DNA from: Rickettsiaceae bacterium
GTDB taxonomy: Bacteria; Pseudomonadota; Alphaproteobacteria; Rickettsiales; Rickettsiaceae
Assembly: GCA_021741085.1 (NCBI GenBank)
Contig: JAIOYM010000001.1
Coordinates: forward strand, 1 to 38,486
DNA length: 38,486 nt
Direction: 5' to 3'
Below the pieces are notes generated by a model, which made no database searches, had not been told where the DNA came from, and saw nothing but the letters and a program-made list of their open reading frames with translations. Shown piece by piece: positions 1-25,905 of the stretch; position 1 is the first letter of the stretch; every line of letters begins with the position of its first letter. The position numbers and the translations under genes are program-made.

Positions 1-230
1 TATTTCTATAACCGCTAGAGGATGTTGCTACGTTCTTAACAGAGTCCACATTCCAACAAATTACAACACTCCCTCGAAAATTTACTCTCTATCCCCCCAC
101 ATTCCTCCAACAACACTCCCTCGAAAATTTACCTCCCTATCTAACTCTTCCCATGTTTGCGCGCCCAACCTTTAGTTGAATATATATGTAGAAGGGATGT
201 TGCTTCTTTTATAATAGAATTGCCGGAATG
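1..230 (-). repeat. Degenerate, inverted copies of the palindromic-element family found at 18.1 kb and 21.9-22.8 kb, plus a local ~48-bp direct duplication
   Basis: Positions 11-24 (accgctagaggatg) are the reverse complement of the box catcctctagcggt that punctuates the 22-kb array. Positions ~191-230 (gaagggatgttgcttcttttataatagaattgccggaatg) resemble the reverse complement of the half-element tail (gcaatccagccattctattaaaaaagcaacatcc). The motif caacactccctcgaaaatttac(t/c)ctc occurs twice at ~63-93 and ~111-141 and matches the reverse complement of 21861-21885. Confidence 0.5.
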
Positions 231-17888: not shown

Positions 17889-18090
17889 AAAAAAATGATA
17901 CTTAATAATTTATTAATAACTAAATAATATCTTAGATATTAAAGGGAAAATGTCAAGATTTTTTATTAGCTCGAGAGAGTTTTTCTTTTTCTTTTTTACT
18001 AGGATTGCTTGAATGCCTCAAAAGTTATAGAGTTGTGCACGTCACGCTCTTTGCTCACGTCAAATGGTAGCGTGCAATTATAATGAAAAG

Positions 18091-18375
18091 AAGCAACAAC
18101 CCCTAGAGGTAATGTGGTAGCATCATTGCGAGCTTGCAAAGCGTGGCAATCCAGCCATTCTAATACAGAAGCAACAACATCCTCTAGCGGTAATGTGGTA
18201 GCATCATTGCGAGCTTGCAAAGCGTGGCAATCCAGGACAAACAACTCCTTCCATACAATTTTTAAAAGAAGTTAATAACTGGATCACCACGCTAGTGCTT
18301 GTAGGCACTAGCTCGTGATGACACGAATTCTATGACTGTTAGGCAATCCAGCCCCGTTTAATTCAGAAGAAGCAC
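18091..18375 (+). repeat. RPE-like palindromic element locus: one half-element (18091-18177) plus one full hairpin element (18178-18375; stem arms 18204-18321)
   Basis: The left arm tcattgcgagcttgcaaagcgtggcaatccag occurs twice. The second copy is followed by the loop gacaaacaactccttccatacaatttttaaaagaagttaataa and the right arm ctggatcaccacgctagtgcttgtaggcactagctcgtgatga. It is near-identical to the units at 21.9-22.8 kb and in the same orientation. Confidence 0.85.
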
Positions 18376-18405: not shown

Positions 18406-21393
18406 CTACAGAATATTTTCAATATCGCTTATTTCGTAATTTTGACAATCTATCACATTATTATTTTCATCAATAGTACTCTTTAGTAAATCGGGGCCAG
18501 ATATAATTTCTTTATCATTTTTTATAATTTTTCTAAATAAAGGCAACAACTTTCCATGGGAGTTTTCTTGGTAGGTTAGCAAATCGGTGCACGTAATTAC
18601 TATACTATTTGCATCGCAGCCTAATCTTAGAAGTGTTGTAGTGAAATCTTCATGCCATTTTTGTTTAGTTTGGCTGGTTAAATTTTTTACAAAAATATAT
18701 CTAACACTGTGTAGATCGTAATTTTGGCAAGAGTTTCTGTATAATTCTAGCTGATCATTATCTGTAAATAATAATGTTGGTAGATGGTCATAGATAACTT
18801 CTGCTATCAAACTTTGCTTATCTAAATAATTATTCATAAATATTCTTGTACCCGAAATAAAAGGCAGTAGAATTCCGTAAACTAAACCAAAATAATTGTC
18901 TATGGGCATATTATGGACTATTTTATCTTTATACCCCAATACAAATTTGCTTTTAAACATATTGATAGCGAAGTTAATATTAGTCCAAGAAAAACCCGTG
19001 ATTTTGTCGGGAAGTATAAAAAATATTCTAGCGATATTGGTGTTAAAGTCTGTATTGCTAGTGAATTTAGCGATTTTCCTTTCATCATATATTCTTGGTA
19101 GCTTGAAGAAATTTTCAAGCGTTAATATGGTAAAATCTTCATGAAGGTTGACTAAATTTGCCAACTTATGCTTAATAATTTTTTCTGAGATTACTATCTT
19201 TGAAATATTTAGCTGCTTGCAAGCAGATTTTATACGAGTATATTCCAATTTATCATTGATAAATAATATTTTTAACCCAAGCCTTTCTAAAGCTAAAAAG
19301 AAAATAACCGATTTAGGACAGTTGTAGGTTATTAAGGCAATAGTCTCTGATGGGCTAACTTTATGAATGAGTTCCATCTGTATTTTTTTCATTTGTCTTT
19401 GTATACTTCCGTATCTATAAGACTTATGATGGTCTTGTAATATCACGTGAGTAGAGCCGAAATTTGAATCTACAAGAGAAAAAAAGCTTTTGAGATTATT
19501 GTTTTCATAATCCTGCATTTTAGCCAGGGTTAATGTTTCGTGCATAACATCGGATAGAATTTTAGTTAGCACCCTCTTGTCAGAAACTTCAGACAAATCT
19601 TGCAAGCTTATTGCTGGGAATACCCTGATGATAACTTTTGGAAATAGCTGAAGCTTGTGTATTGTTGAACGCGCAAACAAAGTTTTTTCTGTACCAGTAA
19701 CTACTACAGGTAAGATTTTTGCACCGGTTTTGGCGGCTATTAATGCGGCGCCGTTATATATTTTCATCAAACCACCGGTTGTGCTAATTTTTCCTTCAGG
19801 AAAAATACACATCTTATGCCTCTCTGCTACTAGCTTGATTAAATGTTTTATACCCATAGGGTTAAAAGGATCAACAGGTATAGCTTTGCTTATTTTTAAA
19901 ATGGGTTGCATCCACCATGACTTATATATGTTAGTATACATGGCAAATATTATATTTTCAGACAAATAGGTGGAAATTATTGGTGGCTCTAGGTAAGAAA
20001 AATGGTTGCAGATTATTATTAGCTTGCCTTTTTCATTCTTAAAATTTTCTAGCCCAACTACTTCAACCTTATAAAAGAAGTGCAAGAAATAACGAAATAT
20101 TCTCTTTACCACACTTTTTTTCACAAAACCTTTGGCGTAATTCAAACGTACTATTGTAATAGCTACAGGTATATTTGATATACAGGTTATCAATATAACA
20201 TCCGCGGCATTAAAGTTTAACCAATATAAGGCCATTACGAAAGCCAAAGACAGCAACATAAAAATAGCATTATATGTATTATTAGCTGCTACAATTCTTG
20301 ATCTATATTCAGGTGGGCTGAAATATTGTAGTAGTGTGTATAATGGCAGAACATAAGCCCCTGCAAGCGCTGCCATTATAAAAAGATCTATAGTAATTCT
20401 TACATTACTATAGACTGCCAAAAACTGTGTTAAGTTTTGTAGTTCGGTTAACTTGGAGTAATATTCACTTGAGCAGAGATAATAAAAATCAATGCCTACT
20501 AGCGTTATTAATAAGAGTATATTTATGTTATGCTGTACGCTTCTTCTTGCTGCATATATTCTGTTATATATTAGGCATCCTGAAGATACACCGATTGCAA
20601 AAACAATAAAACAAAAGCTGGCTACAATTTCTGTGGCATGCAGAACATTTTTGCATAATTCAGGCAATTGTCCCATGAATACTGAACCCTCTGCCCAGAA
20701 CCAAGATATACCTAAAATATTATAAAATATATTTTTTTTACTATAGGAATATTTCAGTAGATTTACGTTGCTTCTAATTAAGTTGAAATCTATTTTTACG
20801 TCATGCTTGACTGTAGATCCGCTTGGTATAAAGGTACTGGATATGTAGCCAATAATAGCGACAGACATCAAAGTAATAATAACAGCTAGGGGATATACAG
20901 TGTAAAAATTACCCGCTATAGTTCCAAAAAGTATAGCTAAAAACGTACTAGCTTCTATATATGCATTTGCTGGCACTAAATCTGCCTTGCTTAAATGCTC
21001 TGGTAAAAGACTGAATTTTACGGGACCAAAAAATGTCGAATGTAAACCCATAAAAGCTATAGCACATAACAACAAGTAAACCGAGTTAAGTTTGAAGCTT
21101 ATTATAGCAAAAACTACAATAATTACTTCAGCAACTTTAATTAGACGAACAATTTTGGTTTTATCATATTTATCTGATAGTTGCCCTACAAAAGATCCAA
21201 AGATTATATAAGGTAGTACGAATAGAGAATTTGCAAAGTTTATCAAGATTCCAGAGTTAGAGCTCGGCTCTAAAGCTGTATAGGTAACCATTATAAAGAA
21301 AGCATTTTTCAATAGCAAATCGTTAAAGCATCCGCATAGCTGAGTTATAAATAAAGGGAAAAACGCGGTGCTAAAAAATATATTTTTTTGCAT
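18406..21393 (-). CDS. aas: Tri-domain fusion (995 aa): MFS lysophospholipid transporter (LplT-like), lysophospholipid acyltransferase, and an Aas-type adenylation-like domain
   Basis: Residues 1-~420 form a polytopic MFS domain with GQLSDKYDKTK (MFS motif A-like). Residues ~440-600 form a PlsC-type acyltransferase with NHFSYLE (an HX4E variant of HX4D), FPEGKIS and ILPVVV. Residues ~640-995 resemble the N-terminal subdomain of adenylate-forming enzymes, but the P-loop is missing. Confidence 0.85.
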   Translation of the reverse strand: MQKNIFFSTAFFPLFITQLCGCFNDLLLKNAFFIMVTYTALEPSSNSGILINFANSLFVLPYIIFGSFVGQLSDKYDKTKIVRLIKVAEVIIVVFAIISFKLNSVYLLLCAIAFMGLHSTFFGPVKFSLLPEHLSKADLVPANAYIEASTFLAILFGTIAGNFYTVYPLAVIITLMSVAIIGYISSTFIPSGSTVKHDVKIDFNLIRSNVNLLKYSYSKKNIFYNILGISWFWAEGSVFMGQLPELCKNVLHATEIVASFCFIVFAIGVSSGCLIYNRIYAARRSVQHNINILLLITLVGIDFYYLCSSEYYSKLTELQNLTQFLAVYSNVRITIDLFIMAALAGAYVLPLYTLLQYFSPPEYRSRIVAANNTYNAIFMLLSLAFVMALYWLNFNAADVILITCISNIPVAITIVRLNYAKGFVKKSVVKRIFRYFLHFFYKVEVVGLENFKNEKGKLIIICNHFSYLEPPIISTYLSENIIFAMYTNIYKSWWMQPILKISKAIPVDPFNPMGIKHLIKLVAERHKMCIFPEGKISTTGGLMKIYNGAALIAAKTGAKILPVVVTGTEKTLFARSTIHKLQLFPKVIIRVFPAISLQDLSEVSDKRVLTKILSDVMHETLTLAKMQDYENNNLKSFFSLVDSNFGSTHVILQDHHKSYRYGSIQRQMKKIQMELIHKVSPSETIALITYNCPKSVIFFLALERLGLKILFINDKLEYTRIKSACKQLNISKIVISEKIIKHKLANLVNLHEDFTILTLENFFKLPRIYDERKIAKFTSNTDFNTNIARIFFILPDKITGFSWTNINFAINMFKSKFVLGYKDKIVHNMPIDNYFGLVYGILLPFISGTRIFMNNYLDKQSLIAEVIYDHLPTLLFTDNDQLELYRNSCQNYDLHSVRYIFVKNLTSQTKQKWHEDFTTTLLRLGCDANSIVITCTDLLTYQENSHGKLLPLFRKIIKNDKEIISGPDLLKSTIDENNNVIDCQNYEISDIENIL

Positions 21394-21945
21394 AATGCAT
21401 AATATTTGTAATTACACTTAACTAAGAATTATTGTAGGGATTGTAACATATTTAAATTTTACTATCCAGGGAATTATGTGGTTGTTGATAATTGAACCTA
21501 TTAGGATAATATTTTTTATCTTGTAAGGCGCCCATTAAGCTAAATCCTTTATTAATAAAAAGCTTGATATTTTCTCTATAATTAGTTAAAATGTCGTTCA
21601 GTTATTAATAAATTAATAAGTATTTTTTATGGGCCAAAGGGACGATGAGCCTGGGAATGCAGAATTCCGATATTGGGAGCAACTTAACTTGTTAGAAGCA
21701 GCCCAAGAGCAACTAAAAGAAGCATTCCAAGAAAGATGTGATGAAGCAGGGTATCTTCTGGCCCTCCTTGGTGCGCCTGCTGGACTTATACCGCCTCATT
21801 TGTTTGACAATTAGTGAAGAAATTGATAAATGAAATGCGGCGTTGGGTAAAATTGTGGTTAGATAGAGAGTAAATTTTCAAGGATGTTTTGGGATGAGGG
21901 GTCTTTTAAGAAGGTGGTAACATCTTCTAGCGGTAATAAAAATAC

Positions 21946-22061
21946 GTCATTGCGAGCGTAGCGTGGCAATCCAGGATAAACAACTCCTTCTATACAATTT
22001 TTAAAAGAAGTTAATAACTGGATCACCACGCTAGTGCTTGTAGGCACTAGCTCGTGATGAC
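21946..22061 (+). repeat. Full hairpin element, copy 1
   Basis: The left arm is gtcattgcgagcgtagcgtggcaatccag and the right arm is ctggatcaccacgctagtgcttgtaggcactagctcgtgatgac. They flank the loop gataaacaactccttctatacaatttttaaaagaagttaataa. Confidence 0.85.
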
Positions 22062-22220
22062 ACGAATCTAAGACTGACAGGCATTCTGGCAATTGTAATA
22101 TATAAGAGAAGAAACATCCCCTAACGGTAACGCACAAGAGTCATTGCGAGCTTGCAAAGCTTAGCAATCCAGCCATTCTAATGTAAAAAAAGTCACATCC
22201 TCTAGCGGTAATAAAAATAC

Positions 22221-22347
22221 GTCATTGCGAGTGTGAGCTTGCGAACAAACGTGGCAATCCAGGATAAACAACTCCTTCTATACAATTTTTAAAAGAAGTT
22301 AATAACTGGATCACCACGCTAGTTCGCAAGCTCACGCTCGTGATGAC
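22221..22347 (+). repeat. Full hairpin element, copy 2 (variant with compensated inner arms)
   Basis: The left arm gtcattgcgagtgtgagcttgcgaacaaacgtggcaatccag pairs with the right arm ctggatcaccacgctagttcgcaagctcacgctcgtgatgac over ~42 positions. I counted only 4 mismatches and 3 G.U-type pairs by hand. Confidence 0.85.
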
Positions 22348-22506
22348 ACGAATCTAAGACTGACAGGCATTCTGACAATTGTAATATATAAGAGAAGAAA
22401 CATCCTCTAGCGGTAACGCACAAGAGTCATTGCGAGCTTGCAAAGCTTAGCAATCCAGCCATTCTAATGTAAAAAAAGTCACATCCTCTAGCGGTAACGC
22501 ACAAGC

Positions 22507-22626
22507 GTCATTGCGAGCTTGCAAAGCGTGGCAATCCAGGATAAACAACTCCTTCTATACAATTTTTAAAAGAAGTCAACAACTGGATCACCACGCTCGT
22601 GCTTGTAGGCACTAGCTCGTGATGAC
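22507..22626 (+). repeat. Full hairpin element, copy 3
   Basis: The left arm is gtcattgcgagcttgcaaagcgtggcaatccag and the right arm is ctggatcaccacgctcgtgcttgtaggcactagctcgtgatgac. Confidence 0.85.
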
Positions 22627-22848
22627 ACGAATCTAAGACTGACAGGCATTCTGGCAATTGTAATATATAAGAGAAGAAACATCCCCTAGCGGTAATAAAA
22701 ATACGTCATTGCGAGGAGTAAAGCGACGTGGCAATCCAGCCATTCTATTAAAAAAGCAACATCCTCTAGCGGTAGCGTTGCAGTTTCAAGAGCTCTAAAA
22801 TAACCCCTGGAGACTTCGGCTTGTTTTATTATTAAATCTTTACTCTAC

Positions 22849-25800
22849 CTAGACTACTTCTTTTTGGGGAACATAATATTTTTTACTACTAAACAGGTAA
22901 TATAAAATTGGTATAACAAATACAGTAAAGACTGTACTAACTATCATACCACCAACAATCGTAAGACCTATTGAATTGCGCGCTTCAGAACCTGAGCCTG
23001 TTGCTATAATTAAAGGTATAGAACCAAGAATAGTCGCTAAAGAAGTCATCAAGATTGGTCTAAATCTTAATTTACATGCATTTACTATAGCGTCTTTAAA
23101 TACCACTCCGCTAAGCGTTATCTGCTGGTTAGCAAATTCTATAATCATTATAGCATTTTTGGTTACCAAGCCTATAAGTGTTATCATTCCTATATTGCTA
23201 TATAAATTTAGACTACTACCGCCTATTATCAAAGCTAGCAGCGCTCCTGTAATAGAAAAAGGTACAGAACATAAAATTAACAACGGATCCTTGAAGCTTT
23301 CAAATTGGGCAGCAAGCACTAGATAAATGAATGCCAAAGCAAGTAGGAAAGTTGTTATCATTTGGATATTGTTATTAGCCATTTCTTTTATTTGCCCCTT
23401 GAACTCTATTTTTAACTCCGGTGGCAGAATATCTTTTGCCATATCTCTAATATGATTTGCTATCAAAGTAAGATCTTGAATATTACCGAAACTAGAAAAA
23501 ATACCAATTATACTTCGGCCATCCTTGTGTGTGTATGCTGCGACTGAAGGTTCTTCCTGAATTTTAACAAAATCAGCTAAAGAAAACATTGTCCCTTGGG
23601 TATTCTTCAAGTAAATTTTCACTAAATCATTCACCTTATTTATTTTTTGTGGGTCATATCTTAAATAACTTCCATAACTTTCACCCTTTAACATGAAAGT
23701 ACCAACTTGCCTTGACGCTATTAAATATTGTAGGCTTCTGCCAATATTATCCATAGAAACGCCGTAAAGATATGCTTTGTTGCGATCTACTGCTATGTCT
23801 AGTGAAGGTACAGAAGTGTTAATAACGCGTTCCGGATTTAAAAACATTTTATCTTTTAACATAGCCTCAACAAAAATTTCAGAATATTTATCTATAGATT
23901 TAAAATCATCCCCTACTATATTAAATTCTATATCATGACTACCTTGAGAAAAACTAGATGTAGGGTTAAAAGCTCCAACTTTAGCTTCTGTAATATTTGC
24001 AAATTTTTTATTTAGTTCGTCCACAATCTCAGGTTGAGGCCTTTTCCTGTCTTTTACATTTTTTAGCTTCGTGAAACTAAATCCATTATTATCACTACCA
24101 CCAAAACCATTAATAGTAAAAACAACAGCAACTTCTGGGGTATCACCAAGTAATTTTGCTGCTTGCAACATGGCGACTTCTGTATTCTTTAAGGTAGAAC
24201 CATCAGGACCAACAACCCTAACCTGGAAAGAACCAGTGTCCACAGTCGGGTCAAAAGTTTTTGGTACCTTAATAAATCCAATAACCATTATAATAACAGA
24301 GGCAGCTGCGATAGCAAAAAACTTCATTTTATTGTTGAAGAAATATTCTAAATATTCCAAATACACATTTTCTACATAGTGCAATAACTTATTAAAGTTT
24401 ATTGTTAGAATATTGTTAATATGAACATCACGTTTAAGAACTTTACTAGCTAACATAGGCGTAAGCGTAAGAGCAACAAAACCTGAAACCAATACAGAAA
24501 AAGCCAAAGTCCAAGCAAATTCTATGAATAGTTCTCCAATTATTCCTTGTATAAATCCTATTGGTAAAAATACAGCTACTAAAGTTATAGTCATTACCAC
24601 TACAGCAAAAGTAATTTCTCTTAAAGCTAAAATAGAAGACTCAAATGCAGGTACTCCTCCTTCTCTACGTCTATATATGTTTTCCAAAACCACAATAGCA
24701 TCGTCCACTACAAGACCAATTGCTAATACCAAAGCAAAAAGACTGAATAAATTTATAGAATAGCCACATAGCTTCATTAAAGAAAAAGCTCCTACAAGAG
24801 ACACAGGGATTGTGATTAAAGGTATTAAACTTAACCGTAATGAACCCATAAATAAATACACTATAAAAGCAACTAAAAAGACTGCTTCAAATAATGTCTC
24901 ATAAACAGAAGATATAGATTCTTGCAGAGAATCTGCGGTATTGACAGATATAGCCAAACTTACTCCAGATCTACCCGCCTCTTGCAGTATAGCTAGGGTT
25001 TTTTTCACGTCCCTTGAAAGATCTAATAAGTTGGATTCAGGTTTTCTAATAATGCCTATTGCTATTGCATTACTGCCGTTATAACGTACGATAGTATTTT
25101 CGTTCAAAGGCTTCAATGAAACTTTGGCAACATCCTTCAAAAGCACCAGAGTTTTATTGGTATTTTTTTTAACAATAATATTTTCAAATTCTCCTACACT
25201 ATTAAGAGAAGAGTTGATGCTTAAGACAAAATTTTTATTGTCGGTCCTTAATAAACCCGCTGGATAATCTATACTTTGAGTTTTTACAGCTTGCTCCAAT
25301 TCTGATGGAGTCAAATTAAAAGCGTATAACTTCTCAGGGTAGGGCTCTATGTACAACGTATAATCTCTGGAACCATATAATTTTACGGCAGCAACGGTAG
25401 AAATCTTTTCAAATTCGGGTACTATTTCCTTACCTATAATATTAGTAAGAGCCATACTGTCGTATCTATCACTAGAAGCAGATAGCCAAATCACCGGGAA
25501 AGCGTCTATTTGCATCTGCGCTACACTTGGAGACACCATATCCAAAGGTAGACGAGAACTGACATTAGCAACTATAGCCCTTGTGTCATTTAGAGCATTA
25601 TGAATATCAACTCCATATTTAAAATATACACTAATTGTGCTAGTACCAGCGCTACTGGAAGAAGTGAAATAGTCTAATCCTTCCAAGCTTCTAATCACTG
25701 TTTCTAAAACATTAGTCACATTTTGCTCCATATAGCTGGCATCAGCTCCTGGATAAGTGCTAGTTATATTAATTAATGGGAATTCTATGTTAGGAGATTC

Positions 25801-25905
25801 TCTAACTTCCATTCTGGAATAAGCCAATATACCGAATAATATTACAAGAATATTCAGTACAGTCGCAAAAACTGGTCTACGAATACATACTTCTGAAAAT
25901 AACAT
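22849..25905 (-). CDS. RND-family inner-membrane efflux transporter (AcrB/HAE1-like, 1018 aa)
   Basis: The N-terminus is typical (FSEVCIRRPVFATVLNILVILFGILAY) and the protein has the 12-TM, two-large-periplasmic-loop architecture. The conserved TM4 region reads ALVLAIGLVVDDAIVVLENI. It starts 12 nt after the MFP gene stop. Confidence 0.95.
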   Translation of the reverse strand: MLFSEVCIRRPVFATVLNILVILFGILAYSRMEVRESPNIEFPLINITSTYPGADASYMEQNVTNVLETVIRSLEGLDYFTSSSSAGTSTISVYFKYGVDIHNALNDTRAIVANVSSRLPLDMVSPSVAQMQIDAFPVIWLSASSDRYDSMALTNIIGKEIVPEFEKISTVAAVKLYGSRDYTLYIEPYPEKLYAFNLTPSELEQAVKTQSIDYPAGLLRTDNKNFVLSINSSLNSVGEFENIIVKKNTNKTLVLLKDVAKVSLKPLNENTIVRYNGSNAIAIGIIRKPESNLLDLSRDVKKTLAILQEAGRSGVSLAISVNTADSLQESISSVYETLFEAVFLVAFIVYLFMGSLRLSLIPLITIPVSLVGAFSLMKLCGYSINLFSLFALVLAIGLVVDDAIVVLENIYRRREGGVPAFESSILALREITFAVVVMTITLVAVFLPIGFIQGIIGELFIEFAWTLAFSVLVSGFVALTLTPMLASKVLKRDVHINNILTINFNKLLHYVENVYLEYLEYFFNNKMKFFAIAAASVIIMVIGFIKVPKTFDPTVDTGSFQVRVVGPDGSTLKNTEVAMLQAAKLLGDTPEVAVVFTINGFGGSDNNGFSFTKLKNVKDRKRPQPEIVDELNKKFANITEAKVGAFNPTSSFSQGSHDIEFNIVGDDFKSIDKYSEIFVEAMLKDKMFLNPERVINTSVPSLDIAVDRNKAYLYGVSMDNIGRSLQYLIASRQVGTFMLKGESYGSYLRYDPQKINKVNDLVKIYLKNTQGTMFSLADFVKIQEEPSVAAYTHKDGRSIIGIFSSFGNIQDLTLIANHIRDMAKDILPPELKIEFKGQIKEMANNNIQMITTFLLALAFIYLVLAAQFESFKDPLLILCSVPFSITGALLALIIGGSSLNLYSNIGMITLIGLVTKNAIMIIEFANQQITLSGVVFKDAIVNACKLRFRPILMTSLATILGSIPLIIATGSGSEARNSIGLTIVGGMIVSTVFTVFVIPILYYLFSSKKYYVPQKEVV

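Follow-up and report, generated by a model that had tools for sequence, protein, structure and literature searches.

The window analyzed here, the entire 38,486-bp stretch of DNA, derives from an organism that is not Rickettsia, its LepA being 76 to 77% identical to that of Rickettsia, Tisiphia and Trichorickettsia. Its Aas shares 72% identity with the nearest relative, and the source organism is a member of a sparsely sampled Rickettsiaceae lineage. Between the aas gene and the gene for an RND pump lies a gap that holds a tandem array of repeats, array B, in the following setting.

17891-17967, plus strand: first copy of a 79-nt promoter piece, upstream of a 201-aa gene; left arm of an inverted repeat bracketing the aas segment
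18406-21393, minus strand: Aas-like MFS/acyltransferase/AMP-binding fusion, 995 aa, left of the gap
21394-22848, 1455 bp: gap between aas and the RND pump
21394-21552, minus strand: ancestral aas upstream region, similar to the sister MAG L001
21553-21631, minus strand: inverted second copy of the 79-nt promoter piece; right arm of the same inverted repeat
21629-21814, plus strand (that of array B): putative 61-aa ORF behind the duplicated promoter
21862-21919, plus strand: "leader" module, starting GATAGAGAGTAAATTTTCAAGG, directly before the first box of array B
22849-25905, minus strand: AcrB-type RND pump, 1018 aa, right of the gap

The order within the gap is ancestral aas upstream region (first 238 nt), duplicated promoter piece, 61-aa ORF, leader module and array. 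The initial annotation had the array filling the gap; it does lie there, but it occupies only 21920-22790, the rest being the other modules just listed. Positions 21396-21631 align over 247 nt, at 76% identity, with the intergenic DNA preceding aas in L001, and the promoter piece at 17891-17967 is 85% identical to L001 9763-9841. A promoter-like site (21564-21592) precedes the 61-aa ORF, which has no family matches. This ORF was considered as a partial copy of the 201-aa gene, a candidate rejected in the absence of any BLASTP similarity, and the duplication covers only about 70 to 79 nt of promoter and 5' region. The leader module is found again ahead of another array of the window (array C), and in the metagenome contigs L262 and L263 and the Rickettsiaceae MAG K9G11 it is one among several inter-hairpin spacer modules. 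A GC-skew profile showed no origin- or terminus-like feature at array B, and a tRNA/tmRNA search returned nothing.

Array B alternates long and short units that share one head

Tandem Repeats Finder places array B at 21920-22774 with a period of 286, 3.1 copies and 87% matches (score 1260), and the start-to-start spacings of 194/81/205/81/198/80 nt obtained by repeat search give composite periods of 275 and 286 nt, which bears out the tandem array with these two periods described initially. Composite units start at 21920, 22195 and 22481, and the truncated fourth unit that had been proposed is real, with a head beginning at 22759. The units, all on the plus strand, are as follows.

21920-22113: long unit L1, with box (21920-21936), spacer, left arm (21946-21974), AT-rich loop, inverted right arm (22018-22061), linker and tail
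22114-22194: short unit S1, with box, spacer, left arm (22140-22172) and 22-nt tail CCATTCTAATGTAAAAAAAGTC
22195-22399: long unit L2, with arms at 22221-22262 and 22306-22347
22400-22480: short unit S2
22481-22678: long unit L3
22679-22758: short unit S3, with a spacer of the type in L1 and L2 and the unique inner arm GAGTAAAGCGAC
22759-22790: truncated head, with box ACATCCTCTAGCGGTAG (22759-22775) and then a degenerate remnant ending 58 nt before the RND pump stop codon

Long units of 194 to 205 nt thus alternate with short units of about 81 nt, and the head common to all consists of a 17-nt box, a variable spacer of 9 to 10 nt and a hairpin arm of the form (C)GTC-ATTGC...GCAAT-CCAG. Beyond this head, the long units carry a loop, an inverted partner arm and a linker; modular alignment shows that a long unit equals a short unit plus an insert of about 120 nt placed after GGCAATCCAG. 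The same 10-mer is present again after the insert in L0, a long unit of a further array of the window (array A), where it is intact at both sides, and in L263. All four parts of the composite unit as first described exist, but what was taken for a half-element is a short unit complete in itself, box included, so that the anatomy is simpler than proposed, a long/short alternation with one shared head. The box ACATCCTCTAGCGGTAA occurs 10 times in the window at up to 3 mismatches (0.06 expected), and GTCATTGCGAG 8 times at up to 1 mismatch (0.32 expected).

Between composite repeats, the tails of the long units are 100% and their inserts 92 to 97% identical, figures that support the local amplification suggested at the outset, while the heads are only 71 to 97% identical. 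The heads of S1 and S2 are 97% and their tails 100% identical; L3 has a head close to that of the adjoining S2 (95% identity) and an insert matching that of L1 at 97% identity. The longest exact repeat within the arrays is 90 nt. GC content runs in a wave along the array, with arms at 48 to 59% and spacers at 21 to 35% (in L1, 59% and 55% for the two arms and 21% for the loop). L2 is the sole copy in which the inner regions of both arms are complementary (42-nt arms, 83% complementary), and it folds at -72.9 kcal/mol on the plus strand and -84.4 kcal/mol on the minus strand, with z-scores of -8 and -11. Every long unit contains a sigma-70-like match, CTGACA-16-TAATAT. Within the array we found no intrinsic-terminator-like site, and its hairpins are not terminator-like.

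The hairpin arms bear the hallmarks of the CGTC-tagged superfamily

CGTC-tagged REPs were defined by Di Nocera, De Gregorio and Rocco in 2013 as mainly alphaproteobacterial elements, including those of Rickettsiaceae, with an unpaired CGTC tag (TGTC or CCTC tolerated), A-T at stem positions 1 and 2 and an unpaired tail fitting CCA; their families CGTC-1 to CGTC-4 have stems of 8 to 9 bp and loops of 4 to 5 nt (PMC3733652). All 12 arms of the array units in the window follow the scheme (tag)-AT...AT-CCAG, that is, a tag, an A-T stem start and a CCA tail. Among the left arms the tag is CGTC in four (L1, L2, L3 and S3), AGTC in two (S1 and S2) and CATC in two (S0, the short unit of array A, and L0), and the four right arms, read as reverse complements, carry TGTC. 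An accepted CGTC-type tag is therefore present in 8/12 arms, the other four being one base off, and the canonical CGTC in 4/8 left arms only. On its own strand each arm begins with GTCAT, and the complementary strand reads ATGAC there.

The arms, 28 to 44 nt long, consist of a 5-bp outer stem, an internal loop (GAG / (C)GTG) and an inner helix of 4 to 9 bp, and this inner mini-hairpin is hypervariable. Left and right arms differ in two compensatory pairs (TGC/GCA versus CAC/GTG), so that each arm keeps its own stem and pairing between the arms is weakened. With these unlike stems and unlike inner hairpins, the long unit is a tags-outside (head-to-head) heterodimer, and the short unit is a singleton. 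When single arms were folded, the short left arms had weak z-scores (-0.6 to -2.4) and most right arms scored more strongly (down to -3.6), values that are not decisive alone.

Since a stem of 5 bp plus internal loop departs from the 8 to 9 bp and 4 to 5 nt described, the window arms lie outside all four CGTC families, and their sequence would at best make them a fifth, extended type within the superfamily. Outside loci totaling about 1 Mb show the stem covarying between the fixed flanks GTCAT/ATCCAG (242 hairpins versus 4 to 10 in shuffles), and there a second stem variant of the dRS3 type is equally common. The arm superfamily also takes in Neisseria dRS3/NTS and hairpins of Novosphingobium, Methylosinus and Methylobacterium. 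The array is best read as a mosaic cluster of REP-type hairpins of the CGTC-tagged superfamily, which adds a case to an element type already known rather than revealing a novel type.

The SRM motif, HGTCWYN(0-2)YYVSBRHN(0-5)WNVSBRGN(0-2)RNCYNB, has no match in the window, L262 or L263, and the controls L198 and L264 (R. asembonensis) gave 5 and 2 matches, respectively. The NTS consensus and ATTCCC...GGGAAT are likewise absent from the window. An NCBIfam scan of six-frame peptides of the units gave no match at E of 10 or below, in a scan that had no positive control for the presence of RPE models in the library, and a literature search with the literal arm sequence returned unrelated primers only.

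Further arrays in the window and the inversion of aas

All copies in the window are intergenic and clustered at three sites, array B and the two below.

18096-18372, plus strand: array A, short unit S0 (18096-18176) plus long unit L0 (18177 to about 18372), abutting the 3' end of aas
1-215, minus strand: start of array C, downstream of rpoC; tail-like remnant, motif GGTTGGGCGCGCAAACATGG (151-170), two leader copies and a box (9-25), cut off at the contig start

Array A has a period of 81, 1.8 copies and 94% matches in Tandem Repeats Finder. The aas gene is inverted relative to L001, with a duplicated 79-nt piece and one array at each junction. The arrays flanking aas are in direct orientation and are therefore not mediators of the inversion by simple homologous recombination; from their sequence and orientation, the inverted 79-nt promoter copies would be the better substrate. 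No Ssn/GIY-YIG gene, transposase or recombinase is encoded in the 38.5-kb window.

Occurrence of the family in other genomes and contigs

Rickettsia asembonensis DNA contains intergenic palindromes of the same plan, with fixed flanks GTCAT...ATCCAG and a variable stem (3 strict hairpins versus 0.02 expected), and two of its arm starts, CGTCATTGCGAG, are identical to that of the window. L262 and L263 carry the same family in same-orientation mosaic arrays with different spacer modules, of which there are at least four types across these two contigs and the window; arrays had formed wherever the DNA of the family was visible (L262, L263). K9G11, a related MAG, is alone in showing dispersal of the family, over at least 12 contigs, and it has similar mosaic arrays. 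An IS is inserted inside an arm in L262, with an 8-bp duplication, ATTGCGAG, and L263 has extra insertions of about 90 nt within right arms. The DDE transposase beside the L262 array was considered as the mobilizer of the element and rejected, the terminal repeats of this IS being unrelated and the IS merely interrupting an arm.

A search of genome contigs with Aas as query returned only one relative, L001, at whose locus the element is absent, as it is from about 90 kb of Rickettsiales loci around more distant Aas homologues. The 286-nt composite unit had no blastn match among PLSDB plasmids, and the arms are absent from the R. felis plasmid pRF. A metagenome scan for box plus arm gave 2 matches, about chance level by estimate; one of them, L122, may be a true relative. 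The box alone matched only unrelated coding sequence among viral contigs.

Comparison with known repeat systems

The window arms share with CGTC REPs the tag, the A-T stem start, the CCA tail, the arrangement in tags-outside dimers and heterodimers and the want of an accompanying transposase; CGTC REPs mostly form tags-outside dimers, heterodimers are common, and a dedicated transposase has not been found (PMC3733652). In contrast to the 8 to 9 contiguous pairs and 4- to 5-nt loop of those elements, the window arms have 5 bp, an internal loop and an inner mini-hairpin, half of the left arms carry AGTC or CATC, and the conserved 17-nt box before every forward arm has no counterpart in the CGTC REPs described. 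The window elements are also clustered, whereas grouping of RPEs and CGTC REPs has been called rare in general, although grouped copies are usual in Neisseria, as NIME arrays, and in Wolbachia (PMC3733652, PMC1797815). The initial annotation held such a tandem array to be unexpected, a judgment that agrees with this reported rarity but not with the situation in those two genera or with the arrays of L262 and L263.

R. conorii RPE-4 and RPE-6 correspond to CGTC-4 and CGTC-1, respectively, and Neisseria dRS3 is also part of the CGTC superfamily (PMC3733652). ATGAC within the palindrome is characteristic of RPE-4/6/7 and WPE (PMC3767692), and every window arm has this trait. RPEs are interspersed repeats of 100 to 150 bp in the genus Rickettsia, often in frame in genes; the window copies, in contrast, are intergenic and clustered in a host that is not Rickettsia, and what the window and R. 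asembonensis have in common in their DNA is limited to the hairpin plan and the CGTCATTGCGAG arm start. Calling the elements RPE-like was apt for the hairpin class, given the R. asembonensis plan and the status of RPE-4 and RPE-6 as CGTC REPs, but not for the host, and the arm superfamily is far broader.

The NIMEs of Neisseria, composed of dRS3 and RS elements (Bentley et al. 2007, PMC1797815), resemble the window arrays in their outer flanks (GTCATT...AATCCAG), in having hairpins set apart by several families of AT-richer spacer modules of 20 to 200 nt with a resulting wave of %GC, in a composition that differs between genomes, in IS within arrays and in rearranged or variable neighbor genes. 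The two differ in the stem, TCCCGC...GCGGGA in NIMEs and TTGC...GCAA in the much longer window arm, which does not match the dRS3 pattern ATTCCC-N8-GGGAAT either. NIME arrays are also more heterogeneous, whereas the window repeats a dimer-plus-singleton block in register; the window has no apparent link to phage or recombinase, and its host is AT-rich, probably intracellular and not known for natural transformation.

Ssn GIY-YIG nucleases bind and cut NTS/SRM hairpins as single-stranded DNA, Rickettsia and Wolbachia are listed as SRM rich, and the ssn gene, encoding a small GIY-YIG protein of about 94 aa, is typically flanked by repeats (Nat Commun 2025, PMC11893778). Window arms and NTS/SRM share an oriented hairpin with an upstream (C)GTC and a C right after the palindrome, positions important for SsnA cleavage and binding, and in both cases repeats cluster around particular genes; the window arms differ in missing the SRM motif, and their window in lacking an ssn gene. 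The role published for NTS/SRM, to curb integration of DNA taken up by transformation, may not hold for the window organism.

E. coli REP/BIME clusters and Pseudomonas REPINs likewise combine hairpin singlets with inverted doublets, reiterate a dimer with flanking motifs in higher-order tandem and occupy gene 3' ends and sites between convergent genes. They differ in their GTAG tag and in having RAYT (Y1 HUH) transposases as cognate enzymes, with which CGTC repeats have no association (PMC3733652).

Origin of the array and alternative explanations

Taken together, array B is probably best explained as a noncoding mosaic of CGTC-type hairpins that was amplified in blocks and forms a recombination-prone tract. 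The repeat alignments lead us to propose that the short unit derived from the long one by deletion between two copies of GGCAATCCAG, that the long-plus-short block of about 280 bp was then amplified about threefold by unequal homologous recombination or replication slippage between heads of about 60 nt, and that the heads may later have been partly homogenized or exchanged among neighbors. As block duplication predicts, strict register is kept from one composite unit to the next, down to the short unit after each long one, and the non-arm parts share 97 to 100% identity. If the NIME arrays of Neisseria and the BIMEs of E. coli are taken as analogues, the array would encode nothing; it would perpetuate itself as a tract prone to recombination, with hairpins that form by extrusion when the DNA is single stranded. 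The same analogy suggests that the hairpins may be hotspots for IS insertion, for insertions within an arm and for rearrangement. The recombination-related site that the initial annotation had considered gains circumstantial support from the inversion junctions, from the IS that interrupts an arm and from what is known of dRS3 biology. Again by analogy, a hairpin-specific enzyme with its gene elsewhere in the genome probably acts on the hairpins, and the best candidate for it is an Ssn-type GIY-YIG single-stranded DNA endonuclease. The involvement of an enzyme is pure inference, since the window holds no gene of the Ssn/GIY-YIG, transposase or recombinase type.

We can extend this speculation further, while giving the extension only a small chance of being right. 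Box, spacer and two-tier hairpin might define a distinct fifth CGTC lineage with its own coevolved Ssn-like (or other single-stranded-DNA hairpin-specific) enzyme, which would make its cut within the variable spacer, immediately 5' of the tag, at a position corresponding to that of SsnA cleavage at NTS. Cut-and-rejoin events or template switching there would build mosaic arrays, shuffle modules, add sequence to inner arms and bring about rearrangements such as the aas inversion.

If the units were instead MITE-like mobile elements entering or adjoining an existing copy, for example with GGCAATCCAG as a target-site duplication, the array would have grown by repeated transposition and not by block duplication. 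The presence of GGCAATCCAG on both sides of the insert of about 120 nt in L0 and L263 does resemble a target duplication, and the additional insertions of about 90 nt in the L263 right arms, the dispersal of the family over the K9G11 contigs and the shuffling of spacer modules from array to array all fit such a history. The strict register and near identity of the composite units do not, and a transposase is lacking both from the window and, for CGTC REPs, from the literature (PMC3733652), the sole one seen nearby belonging to the unrelated IS of L262; we therefore regard serial insertion as unlikely.

The array might also act as RNA, forming the 3' portion of a transcript initiated at the duplicated promoter ahead of the 61-aa ORF, with hairpins that would, for example, stabilize mRNA or set the convergent RND operon apart, roles suggested for some REPs and BIMEs. 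Array B lies downstream of, and on the same strand as, the promoter-like site and this ORF, array C lies downstream of rpoC on the same strand, the RNA folds of the long units are very stable, each of these units has its sigma-70-like match, and many REPs are located downstream of coding regions and plausibly transcribed (Di Nocera et al., PMC3733652). Against this, neither strand is favored: as read from the sequence, the mismatches between arms in one stem segment would pair as G-U on one strand, those in the other segment on the opposite strand, and the minus strand folds better than the plus. Moreover, the array has no terminator-like site, array A is antisense to the gene it abuts, and SsnA is inactive on RNA (PMC11893778). 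No Rfam family was found at the gathering threshold, and a permissive scan returned only sub-threshold matches to eukaryotic miRNA precursors, which are generic for long hairpins. The structured ncRNA array envisaged earlier thus finds no support here, and an RNA element seems quite improbable.

In a short-read metagenome, the three composite copies might have been misassembled from dispersed ones. The window is a whole MAG contig that ends inside another element copy, which indicates that the assembler struggled with the repeat, and the family is multicopy. Nevertheless, each long unit has a unique inner-arm sequence, S3 is unlike S1 and S2, typical reads and inserts exceed the longest exact repeat in length, and the same kind of array is present in independent assemblies from other samples (L262 from JGI and L263 from ENA), so that an artifact is very improbable. 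That the gap is a decayed protein-coding gene can practically be dismissed, since tblastx of the gap against related loci finds the aas upstream region only, there are no Pfam or NCBIfam matches, and the small ORFs annotated across the units (P0121, P0125 and K9G11 "hypothetical proteins") are the repeat translated in whichever frame is open, with no other match among 1.8 billion representative proteins.

Implications

Our findings place NIME-like mosaic arrays in an uncultured Rickettsiaceae lineage, where NIME-type arrays had been stated not to be seen outside Neisseria (2007 paper), and they tie together three literatures that are usually read apart, those on Rickettsia RPEs, on Neisseria dRS3/NIME arrays and on Ssn single-strand nucleases. 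The atypical arm, with its short outer stem and inner hairpin, and the upstream box suggest that current motif definitions undercount the superfamily.

Such arrays break MAG assemblies, as at the end of the present contig, and give rise to spurious "hypothetical proteins" in annotation, with at least 20 ORFs deposited for one MAG. They also mark rearrangement junctions. The atypical arms together with the box provide a defined substrate for studying the specificity of Ssn-type enzymes of Rickettsiales, and if the reading as a fifth lineage with its own enzyme were true, the arrays would be active rearrangement engines of reduced Rickettsiaceae genomes rather than passive debris.

A tandem array of composite hairpin units

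The genes for an Aas-like protein and an RND pump are separated by 1455 bp, and the initial annotation's claim that this long gap contains a tandem array was borne out by Tandem Repeats Finder (21920-22774, period 286, 3.1 copies, 87% matches), the array occupying 21920-22790 only and not the whole gap. A repeat search also recovered the proposed 275- and 286-nt composite periods, with unit start-to-start spacings of 194/81/205/81/198/80 nt, and a multiple alignment of the units revealed that long (L) and short (S) units alternate.

Features of the gap and the array
18406-21393, minus strand: Aas-like gene, 995 aa, MFS, acyltransferase and AMP-binding domains
21920-22113: long unit L1
22114-22194: short unit S1
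22195-22399: long unit L2
22400-22480: short unit S2
22481-22678: long unit L3
22679-22758: short unit S3
from 22759: truncated head
22849-25905, minus strand: AcrB-type RND pump gene, 1018 aa

Every unit shares a head made of the box ACATCCYCTAGCGGTAA, a 9-10-nt variable spacer and a hairpin arm, (C)GTCATTGCGAG-[variable]-GYGGCAATCCAG; the window has 10 copies of the 17-nt box (0.06 expected) and 8 of GTCATTGCGAG (0.32 expected). A long unit equals a short unit with ~120 nt placed after GGCAATCCAG, made up of an AT-rich loop, a partner arm in inverted orientation (CTGGATCACCACGC...CTCGTGATGAC) and a linker. The 10-mer GGCAATCCAG is present again directly after the insert in L0, a long unit on the far side of aas, and in one copy on the ENA metagenome contig L263, so that deletion could make a long unit into a short one, or insertion with duplication the reverse.

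In the linker of every long unit, both strands show the same sigma-70-like matches (CTGACA-16-TAATAT / TTGCCA-16-TAGATT), which are consensus matches only, at 9/12 positions, and might drive outward transcription as in Correia elements.

Sigma-70-like matches
22074-22101, 22360-22387, 22639-22666, plus strand
22092-22065, 22378-22351, 22657-22630, minus strand

The array covers no decayed gene: tblastx of the gap against relatives matched the aas upstream region only, and among 1.8 billion representative proteins its translated units matched only other copies of the element. An RNA-level role has no positive support, as neither strand is favored and the array holds no terminators and no Rfam family. 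An assembly artefact is unlikely, given variants unique to individual copies, a longest exact repeat of 90 nt and like arrays in independent assemblies.

The window also contains a separate 69-bp tandem repeat (31560-32494, 13.5 copies, 85% identity) within an ORF at 31241-33382 on the plus strand. It encodes a 23-aa Pro/Gln-rich unit (...PLELPQIAKPAQEQAAPNTTSQQ...) of a 713-aa protein that matches no Pfam family, and GC there climbs to 43%, compared with 34% for the contig.

The single arm as the conserved structural unit

A single arm folds by itself, ATTGC...GCAAT enclosing an inner mini-hairpin. Read on its own strand, the right arm is GTCAT-CAC-GAG...GTG-GTG-ATCCAG where the left arm is GTCAT-TGC-GAG...GTG-GCA-ATCCAG; two base pairs have thus changed compensatorily within the arm, at the expense of pairing between the arms, and what is conserved as a structural unit is therefore the single arm.

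CGTC-tagged REPs have an unpaired CGTC (or TGTC/CCTC) tag, A-T pairs first in the stem and a CCA tail; they are mostly alphaproteobacterial, predominantly form dimers with the tags outside, are rarely grouped outside Neisseria and Wolbachia, and have no known dedicated transposase (Di Nocera et al. 2013, PMC3733652). All 12 arms in the window have the A-T stem start and CCA tail, their tags are CGTC (n=4), TGTC (n=4), AGTC (n=2) and CATC (n=2), and the long units are heterodimers with outside tags. The stem differs, in that 5 bp are followed by an internal loop and an inner helix and 8-9 contiguous pairs are not reached.

Relatives of the hairpins and of the family

When public viral and metagenomic contigs were searched with the bare arm, at least 120 contigs proved to contain TCATTGCGAG-N(4-30)-GCAATCCAG, most of them with 60-70% GC, and the arms there usually form inverted doublets around loops of 16-18 nt; GTCATTCCCGC...GCGGGAATCCAG, a variant, is as common. 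Across ~1 Mb of outside loci there are 242 GTCAT...ATCCAG hairpins, compared with 4-10 in shuffles, and they have fixed flanks and covarying stems (TGC/GCA, CGC/GCG and others). The compact TTGC type is plentiful in replicons of Novosphingobium, Methylosinus and Methylobacterium. Among outside loci, clusters of at least four hairpins are a minority, at 2/145 TTGC-type and 7/191 dRS3-type clusters, and reach 11 hairpins, so that the nine-hairpin array of the window is large and not unprecedented.

Rickettsia DNA found via LepA homologues contains hairpins of the CGTC-4/RPE-4 and CGTC-1/RPE-6 types, inverted doublets, a five-hairpin cluster and two CGTCATTGCGAG arm starts; strict hairpins number 3 against 0.02 expected. 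R. conorii CGTC-1 and CGTC-4 correspond to RPE-6 and RPE-4, and Neisseria CGTC-1 to dRS3 (PMC3733652). The initial description of the elements as RPE-like therefore stands at the level of the superfamily, of which the element is an atypical, extended member in a different host, a sparsely sampled Rickettsiaceae lineage other than Rickettsia.

Metagenomic "viral" contigs of 40-70% GC also hold tandem CGTC-type arrays, of three kinds: a 59-nt array of left arms only, arrays with ~75-nt periods that reach 11 hairpins, and a composite array of 131 nt with alternating orientation. Neisseria uptake sequences were present in just 5/120 dRS3-type loci, and NIME-like arrays seem to be widespread.

Tandem CGTC-type arrays in outside contigs
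L052, 5280-5500
L180, 2347-3035
L198, 3871-4143
L213, 3300-3648

The AT-rich JGI contig L122 (1940-2030) has three different CGTC-type hairpins in 250 nt (stems TCCCGC, CCCTGC and TTGCGAG), and a box-like ...GAAACACTAGCGGTAA precedes the TTGCGAG hairpin; it is possibly a distant relation to the box-and-arm family.

A profile from two translated copies matched 24 further small "proteins," at least 20 of them annotated hypothetical proteins on at least 12 contigs of one Rickettsiaceae MAG (K9G11 tags), and several span two consecutive heads or enter the leader. Repeat translations annotated in this way include P0121 and P0125 in the window and P0122-P0146; one of 50 aa clusters at 90% identity with P0147, a 704-aa "iron complex outer membrane receptor," which suggests either that the annotation is spurious or that a copy lies in frame within a gene.

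Two outside metagenome contigs, L262 (JGI) and L263, carry arrays in which the same heads, all in one orientation, are spaced by different modules (36-nt; ~190-nt with leader; right-arm/linker/tail). In L262 (minus strand, 452-1737), a ~1282-bp IS lies within a hairpin arm, flanked by an 8-bp target duplication, ATTGCGAG; it encodes a 393-aa DDE_Tnp_1 transposase, and its terminal repeats, CTGATCCATCCCCACGAAATT, are unrelated to the element. This echoes reports of REPs as IS targets. Long-unit right arms in L263 (minus strand, ~250-310 and 590-670) have an extra ~90-nt inner insertion (CCAAGCAGCCGAAC...TTTGCAAGCGCAAAGAGC), so the inner arm takes insertions besides being hypervariable. Mosaic arrays are therefore usual for the family, and DNA insertion has a hotspot in its arm.

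Amplification and rearrangement

Between composite repeats, long-unit tails and S1/S2 tails are 100% identical and inserts 92-97% identical, and heads are only 71-97% identical, with inner sequence particular to each left arm. Such a pattern marks duplication en bloc of a ~280-bp long-plus-short block, through unequal recombination or through slippage between heads, and a hypervariable site inside the arm; the array probably grows and shrinks by the same route. Adjacent heads are alike (S2/L3 and S0/L0, both 95%), a likeness that points to local conversion or to slippage in 81-nt steps. Only L2 has two arms whose inner regions complement each other (42-nt arms), implying templated correction between arms.

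Further arrays and junction features
very start of contig, minus strand: beginning of array C, leader then box, then contig end
17891-17967: 79-nt promoter piece, first copy
18096-18372, same strand as main array, far side of aas: array A (S0+L0)
21553-21631: 79-nt promoter piece, inverted copy
21629-21814: 61-aa ORF, no family match, then leader

The leader of array C is identical to that preceding the main array, GATAGAGAGTAAATTTTCRAGG. The window is one entire contig of 38,486 bp, and since it ends just past the array C box, the assembly evidently broke inside the repeat.

The segment 21396-21631 is the ancestral aas upstream intergenic region (76% identity over 247 nt to the sister MAG), and a 79-nt promoter-bearing piece of it is found twice, in inverted orientation and with matching -35/-10 hexamers, once at either end of the aas segment. 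Gene order matches the sister MAG across the stretch from rpoB to the ankyrin gene, aas is turned round, and synteny is lost downstream, which places the two arrays at the two junctions of an inversion with a duplicated junction. The inverted promoter copies are the more likely direct substrate, because the arrays are in direct orientation.

The Aas-like protein has 995 aa, compared with ~1140-1160 aa in most homologues, and only the first ~113/384 positions of the AMP-binding profile are matched. Its two closest relatives share the short form (992 and 995 aa), so the acyl-ACP synthetase domain seems to be reduced or divergent in this lineage.

Relation to known hairpin arrays

NIME arrays combine dRS3 hairpins with intervening 50-150-bp RS elements of many families; they show a %GC wave, differ from strain to strain, acquire IS insertions opportunistically, act as sites of prophage integration, are proposed recombinase targets, and were reported in 2007 as "not observed in non-neisserial genomes" (Bentley et al., PMC1797815). 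The window arrays have a NIME-type GC wave (arms 48-59%, spacers 21-35%, contig 34%).

The NTS is an oriented 28-nt version of dRS3, CGTCATTCCCGCGMAVGCGGGAATCYRG, which, like related SRM hairpins, is bound and cut as ssDNA only by small GIY-YIG Ssn nucleases; cleavage is set by nucleotides just upstream of the palindrome and binding by the C just after it, and SRM-rich taxa include Rickettsia and Wolbachia (2025, PMC11893778). The window arms differ, with 0 matches to the degenerate SRM motif or the NTS consensus in a search whose controls matched (5 in L198, 2 in R. asembonensis), and the window contains no GIY-YIG gene, transposase or recombinase. By analogy, an Ssn-like ssDNA nuclease, or some other hairpin-specific enzyme, might conceivably be encoded elsewhere and use the hairpins as substrates, and its activity would add to rearrangement and to the shuffling of modules.

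The array is real, non-coding, built of CGTC-type hairpins and amplified en bloc; it belongs to a multi-copy mosaic family and lies at a rearrangement junction. The initial observation was a good one and its interpretation partly right: the array is a somewhat atypical, NIME/BIME-like cluster of CGTC-tagged REPs and no new kind of element. The conserved 17-nt box and the two-tier stem that escapes the SRM motif deserve specialist attention, as does the 9-10-nt variable spacer, which sits where Ssn enzymes cut.
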